Positions 1 through 31,214 of a stretch of 31,214 bases of DNA are shown here, piece after piece. The notes under the pieces were generated by a model. The model was given only the letters and a program-made list of their open reading frames with translations, was not told where the DNA came from and did not search any database. Position numbers and translations under genes: made by a program. Origin of the DNA: a virus (lineage: Duplodnaviria; Caudoviricetes); the IMG/VR virus record IMGVR_UViG_3300048881_000429, positions 1 to 31,214 of that record. One strand, 5' to 3'. Numbering within the stretch: the stretch's first letter is position 1; the number at the start of each line of letters is the position of its first letter.

Positions 1-82
1 TTAGTGTCACAAATACAAAAACATACAACAACAACCAGTATTAATGGGACTTACAGCCCATTTTTTTTACCGCCTCCTAAGC
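1..82 (+). repeat. 82-bp direct repeat, left copy (phage right arm plus att core; truncated by the window edge)
   Basis: ttagtgtcac...ccgcctcctaagc is identical to 31033-31114. The two copies diverge immediately after ...taagc. Confidence 0.97.
70..82 (+). other. att core ccgcctcctaagc in an attP-type junction
   Basis: Contains the anticodon loop CTCCTAA, is flanked on both sides by TGTCACA arm-type repeats, and is also present at 31102-31114. Confidence 0.85.
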
Positions 83-98
83 AGTTTTTGGGAGTTTT

Positions 99-173
99 GC
101 CCTCGTAGTTTAATGGATAGAATAGGGACCTCCTAAGTCTTAGATGCTGGTTCGATTCCAGCCGAGGGCACCA
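99..173 (+). tRNA. tRNA-Arg, anticodon CCT (phage-borne, complete, CCA encoded)
   Basis: Cloverleaf: acceptor GCCCTCG/CGAGGGC, D arm GTTT-AATGGATA-GAAT, anticodon arm GGGAC-CTCCTAA-GTCTT (CCT at 132-134), T arm GCTGG-TTCGATT-CCAGC, 3' end ACCA. Confidence 0.96.
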
Positions 174-274
174 TTTAAACCCTTTATTTATAGTGTTTTT
201 CTAACTTCACCAGTTTTTTATCTATTCAAATCCTCGTGTTAAACACTGGTTTTTCTTGGCTAATGTCAATGGCG

Positions 275-320
275 TGTCACATGCCCTAAAAACCCCTTAA
301 ATGTCACATTTAGTGTCACA
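275..320 (+). promoter_or_regulatory. Putative integrase arm-type binding sites (TGTCACA direct repeats)
   Basis: TGTCACA at 275-281, 302-308 and 314-320. The 19-mer TGTCACATTTAGTGTCACA (302-320) recurs at 31025-31043, and a single copy lies at 5-11. Confidence 0.75.
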
Positions 321-694
321 CCCTGCAAAGCCTAAAATTAGCTGTAACCCCACCCAAATATGGCCACGCTTATGGTTTCTGGCCCCAGGCTTTGCGCGTG
401 GCTGTATATCTTGTGCATTTTGTGCAAATACACACTAAAACCCAAAGCCCCCGTGGCGCGGGTTCTAGCGCCCTAGATTGCACTATTTAAAACATGCACA
501 AAAATGGTTCAAAACAGGCTCGAACAGAGGGAGGAGGAGCGTTTTTTTCCCTGGTTTTATTTTTTCGGCGTGGTTGCTGGGCTGTGGGCCTGCTGGCAAA
601 TGATAGGTGTTATCAATAAGGTAAAAACCAAATAACCATTGGCTATAGCCAAGTTTTATAAGCACCCACACGACTGAAAAAAAATTACAGGCAT

Positions 695-728
695 AAAAAA
701 AGCCCAGGGTTTTAAACCTGGGCTTTTT
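695..728. terminator. Bidirectional intrinsic terminator ending the tail operon
   Basis: A-run, then AGCCCAGG-N8-CCTGGGCT, then T-run, just downstream of the ORF that ends at 743. Confidence 0.85.
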
Positions 729-742
729 GTTTGCTACTTATC

Positions 743-1675
743 TTATTTTGTCATGCCATCCACTTTGGTTTTCACTGCACCAATGTCTGTGGCGGCCTTG
801 GTAAATTTAGCCAGGTTAACTGGTGGGCTACTTGGCGAACCTGGGGCCGCGCACGTTACGGTTAATGCTGCCACCTGGGTAAATCCATCTGATACCGCTT
901 GCATAAAATCACTGACCAATTTTAAAAGGTTGTCTGTTTCTGTGCCCAGGTGAATTTTAGGGGCGGTTTGTTCTAAATTCTCAGTGGCTTTATCAATTAT
1001 GTTTTTGCCTGCGCTTCGGGTTATATGCTCACCGGCCATTTGGTTAACGCTGCCCAGGGCCAATATGTTTGCCACTGTGGTTGAAAGTAAATGTATGGCG
1101 CTGGCTTCTATTTGTTTTTTTCCGTCTATGTCTTCAATTGAATGTTGAAGCACTCTTTTAATTTCTTCACCCAGGGTTTCAATTTTCTTGTGGGTTTCTA
1201 TTTCGTGGGTGTGGCTTTTGTCGTTTATGTTGGCGTGGGTTTCTCGCTTCCAATTGCCTGAATTATCCACGGTTTGTTTTACGCTTTCGTCTTGCTGCCA
1301 TGCCATTGTGTGTTCATCAATCCAGGGCAAGGCTTGACGATCACCCAACACAGAACGCACAAACGGCCTTTCTGGTGAACCGTTTAGCCAGGCTAATTCA
1401 ACAATAGTGCCCTTTTGTGGTAACGCAAAAAAACCGCGCTCACTACCGCCGCCCATAATTGATACGGGCACGGCGTCTAATTCAATGCCGGTGTTTTTAT
1501 ATTCGTTATTTAATAACACAACATTAACCGCAAAGCGCGGGCGGTAATTATCATTTATGCCGCCATTGGCTGGCGCATCGGGTACGGCTAACACTTCGGC
1601 CATTACTGGCAAATGATAACCGGCGGCCAGCTCTGGAAATTCACGGGCGACTTGTTTTCTAAAATCTTGATTCAT
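743..1675 (-). CDS. Baseplate spike/assembly protein (gpV-like; C-terminal half of the HP1 terminal tail gene)
   Basis: REFPELAAGYHLP and RPRFAVNV motifs, OB-fold-like GFFALPQKGTIVELAWLNGSPERPFVR segment, beta-rich C-terminus. Start placed at ATG 1675, which overlaps the upstream stop (ATGA); the ORF track extends to 1717. Confidence 0.75.
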   Translation of the reverse strand: MNQDFRKQVAREFPELAAGYHLPVMAEVLAVPDAPANGGINDNYRPRFAVNVVLLNNEYKNTGIELDAVPVSIMGGGSERGFFALPQKGTIVELAWLNGSPERPFVRSVLGDRQALPWIDEHTMAWQQDESVKQTVDNSGNWKRETHANINDKSHTHEIETHKKIETLGEEIKRVLQHSIEDIDGKKQIEASAIHLLSTTVANILALGSVNQMAGEHITRSAGKNIIDKATENLEQTAPKIHLGTETDNLLKLVSDFMQAVSDGFTQVAALTVTCAAPGSPSSPPVNLAKFTKAATDIGAVKTKVDGMTK

Positions 1676-2403
1676 TGAATTGGCCTTAGTGTTTTTTCCC
1701 AGGGGTTTGTTTGCCATTTAAGGCGCATTTCTTCGCCGCTGATTTCTAAGCCGTTCACATAAAAAACCTGGCCAGCAATTTCTATTTGCACACCAGGGCG
1801 CAACCTGGGGGCCAAAGGTAACGTGCCGCCTTTTACGCTAATTGATTTGAACCTGGCCATGTCTAATTTAATTCGCTTTTGACCGGCCACTGATTTGTTT
1901 GATTCGCCAATGTAAATTTGTCCGTCTGCCTGTTGTTGCCAAACGCCGTTTTCTACTTGCCACATATTTAAAATACTATCCATGGCCATATAGCCGCCGC
2001 CAATATGTTGAAAGCGGGCCATGGTTTTTTTAGTCCATTCACTGTTTGGCAAAATAAATTTAAGACCAGTTTTTTTGCTTATTTCTTCTAACACCTGGGC
2101 CGGTGTTACATGGCGTAAATTTAACGCAATACGCCTATTTAAAAATGCGGATAGTTCACGGCCCATTACTTTAAACAAACCCGCTTGCAACTGAATAACG
2201 TTTTCAACATAACCCAAAAAAAGGCGGCGCATATCATGGCCCGCCATCTTGCCATTTATTTCTAATAGCTCACCTTGGCTGGGCGCTGTATCTGTGGCCA
2301 CGGTTAAAATACAGCGGCCAGGGGTTTGCATTTCAAAACTGGAAAAATCACTTTTTAAAATAACCTCGCTTTGGGCTATTTTAAGTTGTTTGGTTATTTT
2401 CAT
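1672..2403 (-). CDS. Baseplate hub protein (gpD-like; N-terminal half of the HP1 terminal tail gene)
   Basis: LNLRHVT...L.EIS.KTGL.F and WQQQADGQIYIG motifs, plus position in the tail operon. Confidence 0.7.
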   Translation of the reverse strand: MKITKQLKIAQSEVILKSDFSSFEMQTPGRCILTVATDTAPSQGELLEINGKMAGHDMRRLFLGYVENVIQLQAGLFKVMGRELSAFLNRRIALNLRHVTPAQVLEEISKKTGLKFILPNSEWTKKTMARFQHIGGGYMAMDSILNMWQVENGVWQQQADGQIYIGESNKSVAGQKRIKLDMARFKSISVKGGTLPLAPRLRPGVQIEIAGQVFYVNGLEISGEEMRLKWQTNPWEKTLRPIQ

Positions 2404-11154: not shown

Positions 11155-11412
11155 CTATTTGTGTATTGCGTCTGTGAAGCCTGCCCACAACATGGAACAA
11201 CCCCCAACAATGAATAAGCCAATTAAAACTAACTTGGCGTGCTTGGTTACGGTTTCGCTTGCCTCGCGTTGTTTACGGGCAAACGCAAAATCCTTTTGCA
11301 CTTCTATGGGTTCATCAATATTCAAACCCAACTTCAAAAGTGCGTTGTTAGTGCCTTTTTCGGCGCTGGCTTCAATGGCCGCTTTGATCTCGTTTAGCTC
11401 TTCGGTCTTCAT
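11155..11412 (-). CDS. Small membrane protein in the lysis region (single C-terminal transmembrane helix)
   Basis: 85 aa, helical N-terminus, hydrophobic LVLIGLFIVGGCSMLWAGF segment. Confidence 0.6.
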   Translation of the reverse strand: MKTEELNEIKAAIEASAEKGTNNALLKLGLNIDEPIEVQKDFAFARKQREASETVTKHAKLVLIGLFIVGGCSMLWAGFTDAIHK

Positions 11413-11689
11413 AAGCCACCGCCTTTAGCAAGCCCCGTGATTCAAAGTCTTTTAAAATATCCGTAACCGTGGACTGGTAAATATTGTTTGTACTTAACGT
11501 GGCTAACCACTTCAAACAACCGGCCACCACTCGCGTTAATAAACGCTCAAAAATAATGCGCCAACCAATCTGGCCAAGCATAGCCAGCAAAATGTCACCG
11601 CCTAATTTAAGCACCACACCAGGGCCACCCAACAAAAGCGATTTAAGCGAACCACCTAAAAACAAAGATTTAAGCCACTGCATTTTCAT
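11372..11689 (-). CDS. Putative lysis membrane protein (holin-like or amphipathic), Met-Lys-Met start
   Basis: GGAG-TA-ATG-AAA-ATG start, hydrophobic/amphipathic N-terminal two-thirds, charged C-terminus; overlaps the endolysin 3' end. Confidence 0.55.
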   Translation of the reverse strand: MKMQWLKSLFLGGSLKSLLLGGPGVVLKLGGDILLAMLGQIGWRIIFERLLTRVVAGCLKWLATLSTNNIYQSTVTDILKDFESRGLLKAVAYEDRRAKRDQSGH

Positions 11690-12137
11690 TACTCCAAACA
11701 TAGGTTTTAAAATCGTTTAAGTACTTGTCAGCACTGGCCGCGCCTTGCTCAGTGTTCCAATATTTTTTGGCATACTGGGCTAAGCCTTCCAGGTCGTCTG
11801 GCTCTGGCAATGGCTCTGGGAACGACCATAAATAAACACGGGCCATGGCCGCTGCAAATTCCACATCAATCACCAGGCGTTCAAGCGGTGTGTTTAAATT
11901 CACCGCTGGGAACGTGCCTTTTCGTTTTATGTAACCCATTACAAAATCAAAGGTGGCTGGCTCCATTTGGAATAAACCCAAAGCAGGGCCGCCCTTTTGC
12001 TTGCAGTAGGTAAAACCGCCGCTTTCATGGGCTGCGATCATTAACAACAAACGCACCACACTTTCACTTTGTGGCAAGTTAAAACGCTCTAGCGCACGTT
12101 CAATGGCTGTGCGTATGGTTAGGCCAAGTTTTGTCAT
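11670..12137 (-). CDS. Endolysin, lysozyme/lytic transglycosylase fold
   Basis: IAAHES (candidate catalytic Glu) and GPALGLFQMEPAT motifs; lysis slot between tail tube and chaperone. Confidence 0.75.
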   Translation of the reverse strand: MTKLGLTIRTAIERALERFNLPQSESVVRLLLMIAAHESGGFTYCKQKGGPALGLFQMEPATFDFVMGYIKRKGTFPAVNLNTPLERLVIDVEFAAAMARVYLWSFPEPLPEPDDLEGLAQYAKKYWNTEQGAASADKYLNDFKTYVWSNENAVA

Positions 12138-21967: not shown

Positions 21968-22393
21968 ATGTGTGCAAAAAAAACTAACCCCGACAAAGCA
22001 GAACTAAAAAACACCATTGGCCCCAACCTAACCAGGCTGATTAAAAACAGTGATTACAGCGCCAAACAACTGGCCGAAATTATTGGTGTGGATTATAGAA
22101 ATTTTAATAGATGGAAAAGCAGCAAGGCCGCCGACCCAATACCGCCCAGCGAACATTTACCAAAATTGTGCAAGCTCTTAAATTGCAGCATTGACGATGT
22201 GTTTGATTTTGACCCGCAATTTACCCCGCAAACCTCAGAAGAAAGGCAACTTTTAATGGTGGCCAGAAACGCAAACCCTAATTTGCCCAGGCATCAAATT
22301 ATTAATGCCATATCAATTAGCCTGGGGGGCATGAAAGCCGAATATAGAAAAGTGTGGTTAAACCTGGGGCGAATACTGGGGGAACTAAAATAA
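21968..22393 (+). CDS. XRE-family helix-turn-helix regulator
   Basis: SAKQLAEIIGVDYRNFNRW...P...L.KLCKLLNCSIDDV. Start is 21950 or 21968. Confidence 0.85.
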   Translation: MCAKKTNPDKAELKNTIGPNLTRLIKNSDYSAKQLAEIIGVDYRNFNRWKSSKAADPIPPSEHLPKLCKLLNCSIDDVFDFDPQFTPQTSEERQLLMVARNANPNLPRHQIINAISISLGGMKAEYRKVWLNLGRILGELK

Positions 22394-22420
22394 AAAAGCC
22401 CAGGAGTTTAAACCTGGGCT
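22392..22420. terminator. Intrinsic terminator ending the early operon (convergent with the XRE gene)
   Basis: AAAAAAGCCCAGG-N8-CCTGGGCT, giving a U-tract on the minus strand. Confidence 0.8.
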
Positions 22421-22426
22421 GTTTGT

Positions 22427-22801
22427 TTATCGCTGGGGCTGGTTGGTGTTTTCACTGTCCCAGTATTCTTTTTGCTCGTAAATACCTGGTTTAAGTGGTT
22501 TTACATAAATGGTGCGTTTTACATAAGGCCCACTTTCACCCTGCCATTTTATCATTTCACCAATAGGCCACCATTTTGGTTTCATCTTTGGTGTGCCATC
22601 TGGGTTAACCAATAACTGGCCCTGTTCGTTTTTAGCCTGGTATTCATCCACCACACCTAGAATGCGGCCTTTATCTAATGGTTGTGATTTACCGCCATAC
22701 TGTGGGGCAGGTTGTTGTGGTGCTTGGCTGTATGCTGGGGCTTGCTGCGGGGCCTGGGCATATTGTGGCTGGGCTGGTGCTTGGTTGTTTTGATTTTGCA
22801 T
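22427..22801 (-). CDS. Hypothetical protein with Gln/Pro/Ala-rich N-terminus
   Basis: AAGGA upstream; QAP repeats followed by an aromatic/basic beta-type domain. Confidence 0.75.
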   Translation of the reverse strand: MQNQNNQAPAQPQYAQAPQQAPAYSQAPQQPAPQYGGKSQPLDKGRILGVVDEYQAKNEQGQLLVNPDGTPKMKPKWWPIGEMIKWQGESGPYVKRTIYVKPLKPGIYEQKEYWDSENTNQPQR

Positions 22802-23432: not shown

Positions 23433-24353
23433 CTAAGCGGTTTTTAATAATGAATAAGTTTTTGTGTCTGGGCACTGGCTCACTATGTTGGCCGCTTCCA
23501 GTTCATTAAATGCGGTTTTAATAAGTGGATTTGATTTAATGCCGGTTTCTCTCATTACTTGGCGCACCCCTGGTGTTTCGCCAAAATCCCCCGCGCTTAT
23601 GCGTTTTTTTATTACCGCTATTTTTTGCGCCATATCTTGTTTTTTGTTTTGGGGTTTTTCTATTGCTTCTTTTTTTGGTGTTTCAATTTTTGAAACGGCT
23701 TTTGTTTTTAAATCACGTTTATTTTGTGGCGTTACCGTTATGGCAAAACAAAGCAATGGGCATAAGTCCACCAACACCGCTATGGCATACCAAAGCCCCC
23801 AACGACTTTGGCCGCTAAATTCAGCCAGGGTCGCGCCACTGGTTTTGGCTTGTGGTTGTATTATTAAAAGCTTTTCGCTTGCTTGCTGGGCCATTTTGGT
23901 GGCTTGCTGGGCTTGGGTTAGTAGCCAGCCTTTGTCCGCGCTTTTATCAGCCGACTTAGACGCCAACCTTAATGCCTTGGCCTGGTCTTGATACTCCAAC
24001 ACCAAAGCCGCTTGGCTTTCATATTCACTGCTATTTTTTAGCGCGCTTTCTTGCTGGCCACTAAAGCGGCTTTCAAAAAAACTGGCTGTGCCTGAAACAC
24101 TAATAAAAAATAAAACAGCAATGACACAAAATAAAACCATGCTGTTTACTATTTTATATTCACGCCAGGCATTCACCGCAAACGCTACAAATCCAAATTG
24201 GCAGCCCACTAATGCACCAGCGGTAATACCGGCCAGGGTTTTATCAAACACCGTTTGGCCGTAATCCATAAACAACATGACTTCACACACAATAGATACC
24301 AGGGCCAATACCAGCCCCAATATTAATATGATGGTTTTATTATTCGGTTTCAT
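23433..24353 (-). CDS. Membrane protein with coiled coil and C-terminal winged-HTH-like domain
   Basis: Three N-terminal hydrophobic helices, Q/A/K-rich helix, a fourth hydrophobic helix, then PGVRQVMRETGI...IKTAFNELEAANIV. Start placed at the ATGA overlap (24353). Confidence 0.7.
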   Translation of the reverse strand: MKPNNKTIILILGLVLALVSIVCEVMLFMDYGQTVFDKTLAGITAGALVGCQFGFVAFAVNAWREYKIVNSMVLFCVIAVLFFISVSGTASFFESRFSGQQESALKNSSEYESQAALVLEYQDQAKALRLASKSADKSADKGWLLTQAQQATKMAQQASEKLLIIQPQAKTSGATLAEFSGQSRWGLWYAIAVLVDLCPLLCFAITVTPQNKRDLKTKAVSKIETPKKEAIEKPQNKKQDMAQKIAVIKKRISAGDFGETPGVRQVMRETGIKSNPLIKTAFNELEAANIVSQCPDTKTYSLLKTA

Positions 24354-24577
24354 GCCTGGCCCCCTTGTGCCATTTTTTGGCTTAGTTCGCTGTAAGGTGC
24401 ATACAAAACACACTGGGCATGGTCGGGCGTGGTTTTCTGGGCCACGATCATGGCCGCCCTATACACCATTTGTTCCAATGCTTGCACCACTTCAACTTGG
24501 CTGGCGCACTCCATTTGTTTTATAAATATCCCCAGGCTTTCATCTATTACCGCCCCGTGGTGGTTTGACGCAATCAT
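24350..24577 (-). CDS. Hypothetical protein (75 aa)
   Basis: 4-nt overlaps with both neighbours; AGGGG upstream. Confidence 0.6.
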   Translation of the reverse strand: MIASNHHGAVIDESLGIFIKQMECASQVEVVQALEQMVYRAAMIVAQKTTPDHAQCVLYAPYSELSQKMAQGGQA

Positions 24578-24708
24578 TGCGGCCCCCTTATTTCATTTAG
24601 TAATTTTTTGATTTTTGTTTTAAAATTGCTTTCGGTTCTCATGGTTAAAACTTTTTCTAAAATTATTTGTTCACTGCGTTGGTGGCGTTTAAATTGGTTA
24701 ATGTTCAT
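24574..24708 (-). CDS. Hypothetical basic protein (44 aa; 64 aa if started at 24768)
   Basis: AAAGGA-ACC-ATG at 24708; stop overlaps the next start. Confidence 0.5.
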   Translation of the reverse strand: MNINQFKRHQRSEQIILEKVLTMRTESNFKTKIKKLLNEIRGPQ

Positions 24709-24764
24709 GGTTCCTTTAAAACCCAGGTTGTTGGCGCAACCTGGGTTTTTTATTGCCTGGCTGT

Positions 24765-25142
24765 TCATCCTTTACCCCCTAATAAATCTAATTGGTTTAA
24801 ATCCTTTTTAATTTTCAAGCTGTCATCTATTGCCACATTAATTGGGGCCAATAATTTTGCGGCTTTTAAACCCAATGGGGTTAGGGTTAATAAGCGGCGG
24901 CGGCCATCATCTGTGCATTTGTCTATGCGGATTAAGCCAAAACAGCGGCGGCCCCTTTGCCCTTCGGCTAATGTTTGGGTGTTAAACCAGGTGGTGTTTA
25001 AGTCCAGGTCTAAACGGTCGGCGGCTTCGCCAATGGCCACACCTGGGTTTTCGGCCACTTCACAAATAATGCGTTGCTGTATGCCGGTTAACTCTGGCCA
25101 AGCCTGGGCAAATTCATCTAACAAGGTTCTAACTTTAATCAT
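24765..25142 (-). CDS. MarR-like winged-helix DNA-binding protein
   Basis: NPGVAIGEAADRL and GLIRI....DDGRRRLLTLTPLG motifs. Confidence 0.75.
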   Translation of the reverse strand: MIKVRTLLDEFAQAWPELTGIQQRIICEVAENPGVAIGEAADRLDLDLNTTWFNTQTLAEGQRGRRCFGLIRIDKCTDDGRRRLLTLTPLGLKAAKLLAPINVAIDDSLKIKKDLNQLDLLGGKG

Positions 25143-25327
25143 GGGGTTTGCTCCTGGTTATCTAACTGGGTTTGTAACTCGTATAAACCGTGCATCATTT
25201 GCGCGGCTTCTTCTGGGTTCGTGGATAGTTCAAGGGCTTCTGTTCGAGTAAAGCGCTTGGCCATTACTGCCAGTGCTTTGGCTTCTAATGGCTCAAGCTG
25301 TAATGTTATTTTCTGCATGGTCTGCAC
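25139..25327 (-). CDS. Hypothetical protein (62 aa)
   Basis: AGGAG upstream; overlaps both neighbours. Confidence 0.65.
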   Translation of the reverse strand: MQTMQKITLQLEPLEAKALAVMAKRFTRTEALELSTNPEEAAQMMHGLYELQTQLDNQEQTP

Positions 25328-25613
25328 TCCTGGCGGGGGCTAATTCCAAAATGATTAGGGCGTTATTAATGGCGGTATGCTGGTTACTATCCAGGTGGGC
25401 CAATTTGCTTAAATACACACGTCTAATTTCCAGCGGCCAGGTTAAAATTTGCAGGGCTTTAGCCTTGTGAAACGCGCCCCGCAATTCATGCCTGGCACCT
25501 GGGGTTTTCATGCTGGCTATGATCTTTTCACGGTCGCTCACGCTGCAATTACAAAGGTATTTGGCTAAATTCTGCTTTTTGCGGCTATTGGTTGTTATGT
25601 GTGCAATTTTCAT
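25293..25613 (-). CDS. Hypothetical protein (106 aa)
   Basis: First ORF after the iteron region, in operon orientation. Confidence 0.6.
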   Translation of the reverse strand: MKIAHITTNSRKKQNLAKYLCNCSVSDREKIIASMKTPGARHELRGAFHKAKALQILTWPLEIRRVYLSKLAHLDSNQHTAINNALIILELAPARSADHAENNITA

Positions 25614-25643: not shown

Positions 25644-25947
25644 GGAAAACCCTAATTTTTCTAATTCGTGTTAAAACTCGGCTACACGCCACACCACTTG
25701 GGCGTTTAGCGATTAGAAAAAAACCTAATTTTTTCTAATCGTTTTCTAATCGTAGTGTTCACTTACTGCCTACCCCTTGCGGTTGCTCACTTCAAAAAAA
25801 GTGCGTTTTCTAATTGGTTCTAATTATTTTTCTAATCGGTTATTGTTTTGATTAGGTTTTAATTAGGTTTTTAATATCTTGTAAGTTGTTGTTTTATATA
25901 GGTTTATTAGTGTTTATTAGTATTAATTAGAGAAATTAGGGTTTTCC
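25644..25947. repeat. Iterated CTAAT/ATTAG region bounded by 23-bp inverted repeats; putative replication origin
   Basis: 15 CTAAT/ATTAG pentamers in about 300 bp. GGAAAACCCTAATTTTTCTAATT (25644-25666) matches the reverse complement of 25925-25947 at 22 of 23 positions. Lies directly downstream of the primase-helicase gene. Confidence 0.75.
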
Positions 25948-28700
25948 TAGCCCCCCTGCTGTTTCTTGGGTTTCTCAAAAACCCAGCAATGTTTGCTCTT
26001 ATTTGTTAGCTGTGAACTCACGGGTTTAACATCCATAAACTTGTATTTTGTTGAGTGATTCAATAAACGCTTTAGCTCCTTAACTGGCGGTAATCTGTGG
26101 CGTAATTGCTCAGCCCTGGCGGCCACTTCATTTAGGTTTATGGCCACCAGTTCTTGATCTTTTGAATGGTTCAAAACTTCAACGTCCATGGTTTGTTGTG
26201 AATATTCGTAATTAAGATCTTTTTCGGTTTTTATATTTATGATTTCGTAAACACTCCAAAAGTTTTCAATGTCTGGGTGGTCGTCTGTCATGCGCTTTTG
26301 TCTATCAATGGCGCGGGCCATCATCATGTTTTTAACTTGCTCTCTTAGCTGCACCGCTTCATTACCAAACAAAATGTCTAGTGCATAAAAGCAAGCTGTA
26401 ATCAGTGCGTGCACTTCCTGGATGCGAACCATTTTGATTTTTGGCTGGTCCCTAAATTCAGCCAATAAAACTTGGTAATGGCCAAGTATTGAGGCCATGA
26501 TTTGCTTCTCATTCTTTAGGGCTTCAAACATAAACTTGCTGGCTTGCTCGTGTGACATATCACGAAACATTTTTAAAAGTTCAAAGCCTTCATTACTAAA
26601 ATGGCTTTCGGTCCAGTGGGTATGCACAAAGCGGCTAATCATGGCTTTTTCACAATCCACCATGGCGTTTTGGGCAACCATAAAACCGCATTTAAACGGG
26701 GGTTCTATTGTTTCGCTGCCACCAGTAGGCAAACCCACACCACGAATAGGCCCGCCATTGAATGCGTCTTTCATTTCGTTAATGTCAAAAGCTTGTTTGG
26801 CTTCTATGGTGTCCCCTTCCACCATCACCATTGGTAAACCACTAAATTTAGTCATGGCTTTACCGCGTGCGGCCTGGGTGTATTTAGTGGGGTTTATGCC
26901 TTCGTAACGTCCAGAACGTCCACTGGCCTTCCAAAGAAATTCAATGATGGTGCTTTTGCCGGTGCCTGGTGGGCCGCTCATTTCAAAAAACGGAAACCAA
27001 CCAAGGCGCTTGCGCAATTGCTCTGAATAAAAAGTGCCAAACCAATAAGCAATGGTTAACAGGCCGTTCATACCAAATGCGGTTTGGGCTTGGGCTAACC
27101 AATCAAGTTTGGCCACCTGGTCTGGCACCACAAATTCAATGTCTTTTAATGTGGTTTTGGTTTTTTTGTCCTGGTATTGCACCAGGCCAATTTCGTTAAC
27201 TTCGATATAACGGCCATTCTTAAAACCGTACTTATCAAAAACATAGCCGCCAAACTCTGAGTCATAGCCCATGTAATTTAGGGTTTTTACTTCTTCACTG
27301 GCTTTTTTGTTATGAAACCAACCGTCATAAATAAATCTAAAATCTTTATCGTTTCCATAAAAGGCACCACCGGCGGCAATACCCACTAAGGCTTTATGAA
27401 AACCCTTTGGCCCTTCTAATGCGTTTTTGTCTAAGGTTTCTTGAACACGGGGCGCACCGTTTGAAAAATCAACACGAACAAAAAAACTTAGTTCGCGGGT
27501 TAACTGGTTGCGCTCTGCGTATAAGTACTGTGGAAAACATGGGCTAATTTTTTCAATGGTTGCATTGCTGGTGAATTGCCCAGGCACCGCTTTATGGTCA
27601 AAAAGGCTGTCTGGGTTTAGTTCTTTTAATTCATCTAGGTTTAAATCACTTTTACGTGTGTCTATTTTTACGCTGTATAAAGCACTTTTAAATTCGATGG
27701 TAAAAAAACGTAAACCCTTTTCACGAAAAAACACAAACGCTTTACGGTCTGGGGTTTTAGCCGCTTCTAATAAACCACGGTATAAGCAGCCATCAAAAAA
27801 GCGGCCGCTGTCTTTTGTTAATACGCCTTTTTTGTATAGGTCGTCCCAGTCGTCATACTCGCGGCCCGTAATGGCAAGCGTGGTGTTTTCGCCCATGTTT
27901 TCTAGGGTTTCACTGTGCTTGGCCATGTTCTCTAAGCCGGTTTTGTCAAAGTCCAAACCCCACACCCAGGTAATGTTTTTTCCCAGGTACGGTTTAATTG
28001 ATTCACTTGGGAAATAACCAGCGGCAAACGTGGCGGCGGCTTTTACACCAGAAAAGTGCAAGGCGATTGCATGAAAAATACCTTCAACCAAATAAACCTG
28101 GTCGTGGTCTTCGATCACTTGCCCTGGTGGTGTCCACCAAAGCCCTTTTTGTAAGGTGCCGTTTAGGTCTTCAAAATCTGGGTGGTTGGTTGCTAATTTA
28201 CGGCGCGAACCTGCCCAGTGGTGGCGGCGTTTGCCTTTTATTGGTTTTTCTATAAAACGTTCCCAAAATACATGGCGTTCGGCATCAACCAGAAAACGCA
28301 CCGTGGGTGTGTTTACTTCATCTGTGGTGTTGTTAACTGAGTAATGCCCCTGGGTGAACCAATCGGCCATTTTCTCAATAGGAAAACCGCGCATATAACG
28401 CATGTAACCATCTGCACGGCCATTGGGGTTTTTGGGGTCGTTGCTTAATTCGTCTTTTAAGCCTTCTAGTATTTCTGGGTAAATAGCCTGGGTGCTTTCT
28501 TCATAACCACAATTATTGGCGCGGTTACATTTCACTTTCCAAGGGCGGGCAGGATTTACAAACAGCTCTTTTTTATTACAGCTAGGGCATTCACCTTTAA
28601 TTAATTTTCCATTAGAGCGCTTAAAATTAAACTGGTTGTCATGCTCTAACGCCTGGCTTATTCGTTTTTGTAGTTCGCCGTCAAAATCATAGTGCTGCAT
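25947..28700 (-). CDS. Primase-helicase (Zn-binding + TOPRIM + P-loop NTPase), P4 alpha-like replication protein
   Basis: CPSC...C.R.N.C zinc ligands, VYLVEGIFHAIAL, GLDFDKTG and DWDD (TOPRIM), GPPGTGKS Walker A. Confidence 0.9.
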   Translation of the reverse strand: MQHYDFDGELQKRISQALEHDNQFNFKRSNGKLIKGECPSCNKKELFVNPARPWKVKCNRANNCGYEESTQAIYPEILEGLKDELSNDPKNPNGRADGYMRYMRGFPIEKMADWFTQGHYSVNNTTDEVNTPTVRFLVDAERHVFWERFIEKPIKGKRRHHWAGSRRKLATNHPDFEDLNGTLQKGLWWTPPGQVIEDHDQVYLVEGIFHAIALHFSGVKAAATFAAGYFPSESIKPYLGKNITWVWGLDFDKTGLENMAKHSETLENMGENTTLAITGREYDDWDDLYKKGVLTKDSGRFFDGCLYRGLLEAAKTPDRKAFVFFREKGLRFFTIEFKSALYSVKIDTRKSDLNLDELKELNPDSLFDHKAVPGQFTSNATIEKISPCFPQYLYAERNQLTRELSFFVRVDFSNGAPRVQETLDKNALEGPKGFHKALVGIAAGGAFYGNDKDFRFIYDGWFHNKKASEEVKTLNYMGYDSEFGGYVFDKYGFKNGRYIEVNEIGLVQYQDKKTKTTLKDIEFVVPDQVAKLDWLAQAQTAFGMNGLLTIAYWFGTFYSEQLRKRLGWFPFFEMSGPPGTGKSTIIEFLWKASGRSGRYEGINPTKYTQAARGKAMTKFSGLPMVMVEGDTIEAKQAFDINEMKDAFNGGPIRGVGLPTGGSETIEPPFKCGFMVAQNAMVDCEKAMISRFVHTHWTESHFSNEGFELLKMFRDMSHEQASKFMFEALKNEKQIMASILGHYQVLLAEFRDQPKIKMVRIQEVHALITACFYALDILFGNEAVQLREQVKNMMMARAIDRQKRMTDDHPDIENFWSVYEIINIKTEKDLNYEYSQQTMDVEVLNHSKDQELVAINLNEVAARAEQLRHRLPPVKELKRLLNHSTKYKFMDVKPVSSQLTNKSKHCWVFEKPKKQQGG

Positions 28701-29816: not shown

Positions 29817-31001
29817 ATGGCACGTTCTGAGTTTGCTAGGCGGGGTGATTCAATAATAGGTATTTTTCCGGATGATTTTGAGCGGGGGCATATTCCTGGC
29901 CGCCGTGGTACTCGCCGCACGCTATGCACTAAGCAAGATTTAGAAGGTTTAACCGATCTAGAAAAACAGAAACGCTTAGAAGATCTTTACTTGGCTAAAG
30001 AGTATGAACTTAAACAGCATAAGTTAGATCAACGCCTTAAAATAAAGGAAAAAAAACGCCTTAAAAAAGTTTCTGGGTTCTCCGAGGTTTCACATATTTG
30101 GTTAGATGAAGTCAAAGAAACCAAAAGTCTTAAAACCTACAAAGCCTATAAAAACTCTATTGACCTGTATCTTAAATTGGTTGGCAATCATCGTCTGGCT
30201 GAATTTGACCGCGCAAGTAATATGGAGTTTTTCAAGGGCTTGAAAAACTACAAAAAACAAACCTCAAAAAAAAGCTTTTCACCGGCAACCCAAAACATGC
30301 ACATGCGCCAAGTACAGAATTTTATGAACTGGGCCTATGACAATGAATATATTGAAAAGCAATTTAATCTTAAAAAAGCAAAAGTCCCGCGTAAAGATAT
30401 GGAAGTTTTTAGCATGGACCAGGTAAATCAACTGGCCCAGCACTTAGAAAATAAAGCCAAGCTTCCACCAGAAACCAGAAACCCACTAAGGCACCATAAT
30501 TTATACCTGGCCTATTTCATGGCAAGGCACACCCTTTTAAGGCTTGGTCATATTTGGTCTTTAAAATTAGAAAACATAGATTTAGAGCGGGGCATTATTC
30601 GCATAACAGAAAACGAGGAACTAGGCTGGCACCCAAAAGGTTTGAAGTGGCCCAGCAAACCAATTAACAAAACCTTAATGGAGTTTTTAGAACACGACCT
30701 TAAAAACCGCCCCGCCTCCCATCGTTATTTTTTGGACAATGGCCACGGCCAGCCCTGGGTTAAACGGGTAGAAGTTATTTCAAAGAATATGCGCGAAGCC
30801 TGCAACGAAATTGGACTACCTAAAACAGTAAAACCATTTCATTGGGGGATTAGAGCCACGTTTATTACCTGGTTATTAAACAAAGGCGTGCCACCTGTAC
30901 AGGTTCAACAACTGGCCGATCATTCAGATTTAGCAACCACCATGCGCTATTTCAACACCAGGGAATCAAGCCAACGCGCCGCCGCTGACCTATTAGGCTA
31001 G
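29817..31001 (+). CDS. int: Tyrosine integrase
   Basis: SAM-like domain (SLKTYKAY, SPATQN), catalytic R (TLLR), H-WGI-R, H (LADHSD) and Y (TTMRY); ends 100 bp before the att core. Confidence 0.95.
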   Translation: MARSEFARRGDSIIGIFPDDFERGHIPGRRGTRRTLCTKQDLEGLTDLEKQKRLEDLYLAKEYELKQHKLDQRLKIKEKKRLKKVSGFSEVSHIWLDEVKETKSLKTYKAYKNSIDLYLKLVGNHRLAEFDRASNMEFFKGLKNYKKQTSKKSFSPATQNMHMRQVQNFMNWAYDNEYIEKQFNLKKAKVPRKDMEVFSMDQVNQLAQHLENKAKLPPETRNPLRHHNLYLAYFMARHTLLRLGHIWSLKLENIDLERGIIRITENEELGWHPKGLKWPSKPINKTLMEFLEHDLKNRPASHRYFLDNGHGQPWVKRVEVISKNMREACNEIGLPKTVKPFHWGIRATFITWLLNKGVPPVQVQQLADHSDLATTMRYFNTRESSQRAAADLLG

Positions 31002-31032
31002 TGCAAGCCCAAAATGGCTAAAAGTGTCACAT

Positions 31033-31114
31033 TTAGTGTCACAAATACAAAAACATACAACAACAACCAGTATTAATGGGACTTACAGCCCATTTTTTTT
31101 ACCGCCTCCTAAGC
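31033..31114 (+). repeat. 82-bp direct repeat, right copy, ending in the att core (attR-type junction)
   Basis: Identical to 1-82; preceded by a further TGTCACA at 31025-31031. Confidence 0.97.
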
Positions 31115-31149
31115 GGCTGCTTCAGGTTCGAGTCCTGATGGGGAGACCA
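31102..31149 (+). pseudogene. Displaced 3' half of the host tRNA-Arg(CCT)
   Basis: CCGC-CTCCTAA-GCGG anticodon arm, T arm TCAGG-TTCGAGT-CCTGA, TGGGGAG-A-CCA. No D arm or 5' acceptor strand upstream, where phage arm sequence lies instead. Confidence 0.88.
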
Positions 31150-31214
31150 TTTTTATCTCATGCAAAACCCTTCTGCACAAACCCCTCAATTTTTTCATTA
31201 GCTTTTAATTTGTT

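Follow-up and report, generated by a model that had tools for sequence, protein, structure and literature searches.

An HP1-like phage carries an intact foreign tRNA-Arg(CCT) inside its attachment site and likely uses it to replace the host gene that it splits

The window, by which we mean the whole 31,214-nt stretch of DNA analysed here, is a virus record that holds P2 head genes, an HP1-type tail module, Ogr, a primase-type gene and a tyrosine integrase. Matches to PF05125, PF05929, PF05926, PF10758, PF10772 and PF25759 show that P2 head genes and the HP1-type tail module are both present, and the P2 capsid, GPO, GPL, terminases, Ogr, HP1 Orf24/ORF34 and DUF2586 sheath are held in common with HP1/K139-like P2-type phages, which we take to be Peduoviridae. 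We identify the window as a marine, HP1-like temperate phage of P2 type, with a capsid sharing approximately 40% identity with that of Pseudoalteromonas ACA1 and 38.5% with that of Pseudomonas phi3. In contrast to HP1/K139-like phages, it has a 917-aa primase-type gene (phrog_1139; 25947-28700), located where P2-type phages usually carry gpA and also found in L026 and L012, two loci with related integrases; no match to a P2 gpA-type rolling-circle initiator was found among the 31 ORFs scanned in the window. A 23-nt inverted repeat (96%; 25644-25666 and 25925-25947) flanks a 258-nt non-coding stretch after the primase gene, together forming a possible origin. We also noticed near-identical 37-nt palindromic, terminator-like elements lying 21.7 kb apart (696-732 and 22392-22428), as well as short overlapping ORFs ahead of the tape measure gene (11155-11701), presumably the arrangement expected of frameshifted tail chaperones. 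PADLOC returned no match for seven unannotated or regulatory proteins of the window.

The integrase (394 aa; 29817-31001, + strand; PF00589, E = 1.7e-19; phrog_1) is transcribed toward the attachment site, whose features all lie on the + strand as well. Window 1-82 is an exact copy of 31033-31114; we rejected this 82-nt terminal repeat as the att core, and it represents the assembly overlap of a 31,032-bp circle. The attP common core corresponds to the host anticodon stem-loop (70-82), and its 11-mer occurs in the window only at 72 and 31104. Upstream of the core lie a terminator-like hairpin with a T-run (43-69) and a pair of TGTCACA-like direct repeats (31025-31043, with the second copy also at 5-11), which would serve as the P arm. 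Downstream, the left copy of the repeat runs into a 16-nt spacer (83-98) and a complete tRNA-Arg(CCT) with encoded CCA (99-173), followed by two pairs of P'-arm repeats (263-320). Counted from the start of the anticodon loop, the P-arm repeats are at -81/-69, comparable to -80 to -67 in four canonical relatives, and the P'-arm repeats are at +190/+201/+228/+240, so that arm-type repeats flank the core together with the tRNA. Since the first P' repeat lies at +97 to +112 in 10/10 related loci measured, that is, approximately 80-90 nt closer to the core than in the window, the tRNA sits inside attP.

The right copy of the repeat ends differently. There, the core is joined to the 3' half of a host tRNA-Arg(CCT) (31115-31149, ending in CCA; the whole attR tRNA portion spans 31102-31149), followed by 65 nt of host chromosome (31150-31214). 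The preliminary description had claimed that the phage-side sequence after the core does not match this host-type half, such that crossover cannot rebuild the gene; this holds, as 83-98 and 31115-31149 differ, and no second copy of the host 3' half was found on the phage side of the window. In other words, this attP lacks the 3' part of the target tRNA that canonical integration brings along. Also borne out was the claim that a complete, different tRNA-Arg(CCT) begins 16 nt after the core, between it and the arm repeats, as indicated by ARAGORN, Rfam RF00005 and the repeat offsets.

Public contigs allowed us to follow these junctions outside of the window. In sequencing run X1, from which the window may itself derive, a 31,036-nt contig carries window 30700-31114 at 24116-24530 and window 1-900 at 24449-25348, so that position 31114 (equivalent to 82) continues straight into 83-900 with no differences; this contig spans the attP junction of the 31,032-bp circle. 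Also in X1, a 4,986-nt contig is identical to 31104-31214, host flank included, and has a tRNA-Arg(CCT) 5' half in front; it thus represents the empty attB, fixing the common core with this host at 11 bp (72-82 = 31104-31114). The core extends to 13 bp (70-82) in 16 of 18 Bermanella-type tRNA genes. Neither attL nor attR was among the listed contigs of X1, and attR of this phage rests on the assembly of the window itself. In run X2, from a different study, two contigs align without gaps from window 70 to 179 and to 205 (14 and 24 differences, respectively) with host D-arm letters in front, and an 8,018-nt contig leads from the integrase across the core into the host 3' half, to window 31129. 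The X2 contigs are suggestive rather than conclusive as attL and attR of a related prophage, as their host side reaches only 13-15 letters past the core against a bridging threshold of 31 letters. The relative differs from the window at 54 of approximately 430 nt at the integrase 3' end. The search for attachment sites thus produced an empty attB in X1 and an attL-type junction followed by the tRNA in an X2 relative, attL of this exact phage being unseen. Run X2 also holds a junction of another element at the Arg-CCT site. Matches to window 106-175 in two further runs (X3 and X4) were discarded as the tRNA of another organism. Runs X4-X8 account for small shares of the window, and none of the eight runs listed was an RNA run, a result with no bearing on expression.

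The host is probably Bermanella-like. In X1, the 30 host letters ahead of the core are identical to the beginning of the tRNA-Arg(CCT) in one genome (G029), and the X2 host letters, 14 upstream and 21 of the downstream flank, equal those of another (G016, locus L079), both assigned to the same genus as the Bermanella genome G002. Exactly one Arg-CCT gene is present in each of 19 of the 23 genus-level genomes (17 whole and two cut by contig ends), and none was found in the remaining four. A layout of broken half plus replacement tRNA was absent from all 19 of these genes, and the empty attB shows the host gene with a different flank; we therefore rejected the possibility that the 99-173 tRNA is chromosomal, and the reading of it as phage-borne stands. 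A sigma-70-like site scoring at least 9/12 lies upstream of 17/17 host tRNA genes scanned and ends 8-10 nt before the gene in 16 of them, as judged by consensus score. In Bermanella and its relatives, integration has a hot spot at the Arg-CCT gene (L060, L063, L096, L004, L023, L037), and degenerate tandem copies of tRNA parts occur just downstream of it in several Bermanella-genus genomes (L078, L080, L090, L099).

ARAGORN detects a single tRNA in the window, Arg(CCT) at 99-173 (+), which scores 65.1 bits against RF00005, compared with a gathering score of 29. It is foreign to the host genus, with 48-51 of 76 positions identical to three Bermanella-genus tRNAs, compared with 68-70 of 75 identical to five chromosomal tRNAs of other Pseudomonadales. 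A 25-nt piece of it found matches (at most three mismatches) in 11 of 401 order-level genomes, among which are the sources of these five tRNAs, and blastn of window 60-180 gave no match in five related genomes or records. Across the phage tRNA and its five relatives, 126/126 stem cells are paired and 7/21 pairs show a change on both sides, a value reached in 0/500 shuffles, although kinship can inflate it. Relative to the tRNA at L121, the five differences comprise two compensatory pairs (four changes) and one that keeps a G-U pair. Taken together, the tRNA is intact and was probably captured from another lineage. Its anticodon loop is identical to that of the host tRNA and its anticodon stem differs, leaving 9/11 core bases in common; a crossover within the phage tRNA was considered and rejected, as the first core is where attR and the X2 junction fall. 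Because both tRNAs have the same anticodon loop, the earlier suggestion that integration alters susceptibility to anticodon nucleases finds little support.

For the integrase, searches gave 45 homologues (the best 91% and 89% identical), as well as 15 viral and 25 genomic loci. Against phage records, nothing exceeded approximately 26% identity among the best 15 of 30 listed. No near-identical phage was found in 86 family-level genomes, eight of which hold the integrase family, and scans of viral contigs, a set from which near-identical records may be missing, with the window integrase, three att/tRNA patterns and the L048 integrase (see below) gave no match. The tRNA 3' half is present in eight distinct elements whose P' side could be read (L009, L012 (= L018, L024), L015, L027, L031, L060, L061 and L063). 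The Arg-CCT gene is also the target of Bermanella and Oceanobacter prophages with related integrases. Among prophages whose att site is readable, the closest ones restore their target in the usual way: the prophage of G002 (60% integrase identity) restores this same gene by a 52-bp repeat on one contig, and that of G001 (42%) by a 47-bp repeat, likewise on one contig; the att pairing of a third, G003, lies on two contigs and is inferred. At five loci (L004, L019, L020, L023, L037), 1.5-4.4 kb of extra DNA separate the integrase stop from the att core, unlike in the window.

Screening the homologues for an adjacent tRNA of the target isotype, as the preliminary description had envisaged, pointed to one further locus, against the eight readable elements that restore their gene canonically. 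In an HP1-like contig of an Endozoicomonas MAG (L026, 11200-11540), only 15 bp are in common with the anticodon arm of the host's tRNA-Leu(CAA), no 3' half is present, and the element's own tRNA-Leu(CAA) lies beyond the arm repeats, behind a 10/12 promoter-like site. We regard this layout as that of a second destroy-and-replace case in the same integrase family. In a 33-row tree (midpoint root, L039 left out), the window integrase groups with P0001 and P0002 (100/100) within a supported 14-row clade that includes the restoring Bermanella integrases, and L026 falls among the Leu-targeting integrases; the tree suggests that the two types of replacement likely arose independently.

A pattern scan of metagenomes yielded 14 loci, none with a tblastn match to the window integrase; an adjoining integrase was demonstrated for L048 alone. 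At this locus (1690-1948 (-) and 38-1501 (+)), two tRNA-Arg 5' halves lie stacked and have homologous spacers; the locus also contains a whole tRNA-Arg(CCT), arm-like repeats and, in convergent orientation, a tyrosine integrase of 487 aa that has no tblastn match to that of the window. This single 1.9-kb contig possibly records the scars of serial tRNA swaps by an unrelated element. At another (L044, 2960-3110), a promoter-like site, a tRNA-Arg(CCT) 5' half and a complete tRNA-Arg(CCT) all follow a DUF3881 gene, with no integrase ORF recognised within 3 kb, and may be what remains of a swap that became fixed. L053 and L051/L052 resemble L044.

Here, we show a short core, the absence of a host 3' half in attP, a circle, an empty attB and an attR, together with a foreign tRNA that is intact and enclosed by the arm repeats. 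We consider it likely, on balance, that the integrase splits the host Arg-CCT gene at the 11-13-bp core and that the foreign tRNA 16 nt behind the core replaces this gene through the host promoter at attL. Recombination between the anticodon-arm core and the host gene would place all DNA upstream of the core at attR, leaving 16 phage bases ahead of the tRNA at attL, in which a sigma-70 promoter would not fit. Since the DNA upstream of the core in the lysogen would all be host, read-through from the host promoter, as proposed in the preliminary description, is the simplest route, and we adopt it as an inference. The host promoter would then transcribe the broken 5' half, the spacer and the phage tRNA as one precursor, from which RNase P would cut the phage tRNA free, restoring AGG decoding. 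Upstream of the tRNA in the free phage are a terminator-like site and no promoter, which likely leaves the gene silent; in the circle, the 43-69 hairpin would stop read-through from the integrase gene into the tRNA. By consensus matching, on which all promoter and terminator calls here are based, the best sigma-70-like site in 230 nt upstream of the tRNA on the circle scores 8/12, no promoter-like site was found in window 1-800, and this region contains four terminator-like sites compared with 1.2 ± 1.1 in shuffles.

Modelled attL sequences, in which the host halves are proxies from other species, are compatible with such processing. ARAGORN finds only the phage tRNA in 3/3 of them, and the phage acceptor stem is predicted to form with a probability of 0.98-0.99 in 9/9 precursors started at host tRNA +1, compared with means of 0.85-0.98 for shuffled spacers. 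When a 10-nt host leader was included, one of three models (the L091 proxy) lost the stem (probability 0.07). At attL, base pairing between the spacer and the orphan host 5' half is predicted. For two X1-type hosts, the fold reaches -16.0 and -16.4 kcal/mol, values matched or undercut by 6 and 4 of 1000 shuffles, respectively; for seven other hosts, 22-123 of 1000 shuffles were as low. We offer this pairing as a hypothesis, since it came to attention post hoc and reaches significance only with X1-type hosts. A more elaborate version, which we put forward tentatively as a possible but doubtful extension, is that attP operates as a recombination-driven tRNA switch, off in the free phage and activated solely by integration behind the host promoter, that selection has shaped the spacer so that the orphan half folds into an inert, T-armless stub, easing processing, and that the replacement gene becomes the next target, producing serial swaps between lineages. 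The last of these steps fits the layout of L048, with its stacked Arg 5' halves, homologous spacers, whole tRNA-Arg(CCT), arm-like repeats and tyrosine integrase.

How much the lysogen depends on the phage tRNA is where the alternatives diverge. In the strictest form of the replacement reading, the host Arg-CCT gene is essential and integration without the phage tRNA kills the cell. The single-copy state of the gene in 19/19 genomes where it was found, the gap-free retention of the tRNA in the X2 relative and the actinobacteriophage precedent (PMC10865867) are in line with this form; however, tRNA-Arg(UCU) is present in four of five genomes searched, and in E. coli the UCU tRNA is described as reading AGG by wobble, rendering argW, the AGG tRNA, dispensable (PMC4652775). 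We thus hold strict dependence to be rather unlikely. Given the UCU tRNA of the hosts and the dispensability of argW in E. coli, it is uncertain whether lysogeny depends on the phage tRNA, and the lysogen probably gains in fitness instead of owing its survival strictly to this tRNA.

Two readings that dispense with replacement appear improbable to a similar degree. One is that the tRNA works in lytic growth, as a codon supply or as protection from cleavage of tRNAs by the host, under a phage promoter, with a position in attP that is historical. Phage tRNAs commonly serve lytic growth, as discussed in PMC10865867, and AGG occurs 36 times in the 9,026 codons of 31 phage ORFs, five of them in the integrase. 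Yet head and tail genes have almost no AGG, with none in the capsid, scaffold, sheath or tape measure genes; moreover, the tRNA is exactly the isoacceptor that integration breaks, a terminator-like site and no promoter stand upstream of it, and its anticodon loop is identical to that of the host. The other reading takes the tRNA for a neutral leftover from the attachment site of an earlier host, acquired by imprecise excision, in a host that tolerates the loss of Arg-CCT. Capture from a different host would fit the 70/75 identity with tRNAs encoded on other Pseudomonadales chromosomes, and the target is perhaps dispensable, but a neutral relic sits poorly with 21/21 intact stem pairs, with differences from L121 that are compensatory or keep a G-U pair, with retention of the tRNA in the X2 relative despite the divergence of the integrase 3' end, and with P' arms pushed outward at a presumable cost. 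An assembly artefact, with a chimeric attR or attP junction hiding a site that in reality restores the tRNA, is very improbable: the window does have a terminal repeat and a 100-nt host tail, and attR is missing from the listed X1 contigs, but a separately assembled contig spans the attP junction, the phage side lacks a second host 3' half, and X2 shows both junctions.

Replacement from within attP can be set against the canonical mode of tRNA integration, in which phages such as HP1 and 186 cross over in the anticodon loop. The window resembles HP1, 186 and the relatives of its own integrase in the orientation of its integrase, its arm repeats and a crossover located in the anticodon arm, whereas those relatives carry the tRNA 3' half in a 47-52-bp repeat and restore the gene, which the window does not. 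Finders of att sites that are built around a tRNA 3' fragment would miss prophages of the present kind and may annotate the phage tRNA as the host's.

The closest functional parallel is tRNA-dependent lysogeny, reported for the actinobacteriophages Fionnbharth (K4), Cluster L, Cain, Gaia and Gordonia CQ2/DL, with cores of 8-17 bp within the host tRNA gene and Lactobacillus Lj965 cited as a precedent (Guerrero-Bustamante & Hatfull, mBio 2024, PMC10865867). Complementation by an actinobacteriophage tRNA, mentioned in the preliminary description, is thus published. These phages, as described there, share with the window a tyrosine integrase, a short core, no reconstruction, and a foreign tRNA with the isotype and anticodon of the target; both groups also have sister phages that restore the gene canonically, namely Boilgate among the actinobacteriophages and the G002 and G001 prophages for the window. 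With its tyrosine integrase, an attB in a tRNA gene, a short non-rebuilding core and a complete same-isotype tRNA, the window works, at the level of sequence features, like tRNA-dependent lysogeny. In Fionnbharth, by that account, the tRNA lies away from attP under its own measured promoter and the host tRNA is essential, whereas in the window it starts 16 nt after the core and within the arm repeats, leaving no space for a promoter. The window further differs from the actinobacteriophages in being an HP1-like phage of a gammaproteobacterial host whose target may be redundant by wobble.

A second parallel comes from Lo5R7ANS-like prophages of Sinorhizobium meliloti at tRNA-Leu(UAG), for which two computational cases describe an inactivated host tRNA and a carried foreign isoacceptor that is 80.6% identical to the host's and 97.6% to that of Octadecabacter (PMC11476347). 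Like the window, these are proteobacterial prophages that replace an inactivated host tRNA; they differ in their alphaproteobacterial host, phage type and isotype. PMC12429752 reports no such case for phiLM21-like prophages. In the open-access literature, we found no destroy-and-replace case of P2/HP1 type and none driven by a host promoter; the window would extend destroy-and-replace integration to P2/HP1-type phages of Gammaproteobacteria. Within one integrase family, three solutions now appear side by side: restoration of the gene (G002, G001), replacement by a tRNA that lies outside the arms behind a promoter-like site of its own (L026, Leu-CAA) and replacement from inside attP (the window). 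The evolutionary order of such states, left open in PMC10865867, therefore becomes testable. As its target is perhaps dispensable, the window phage also offers a test of whether the evolution of this strategy needs lethality.
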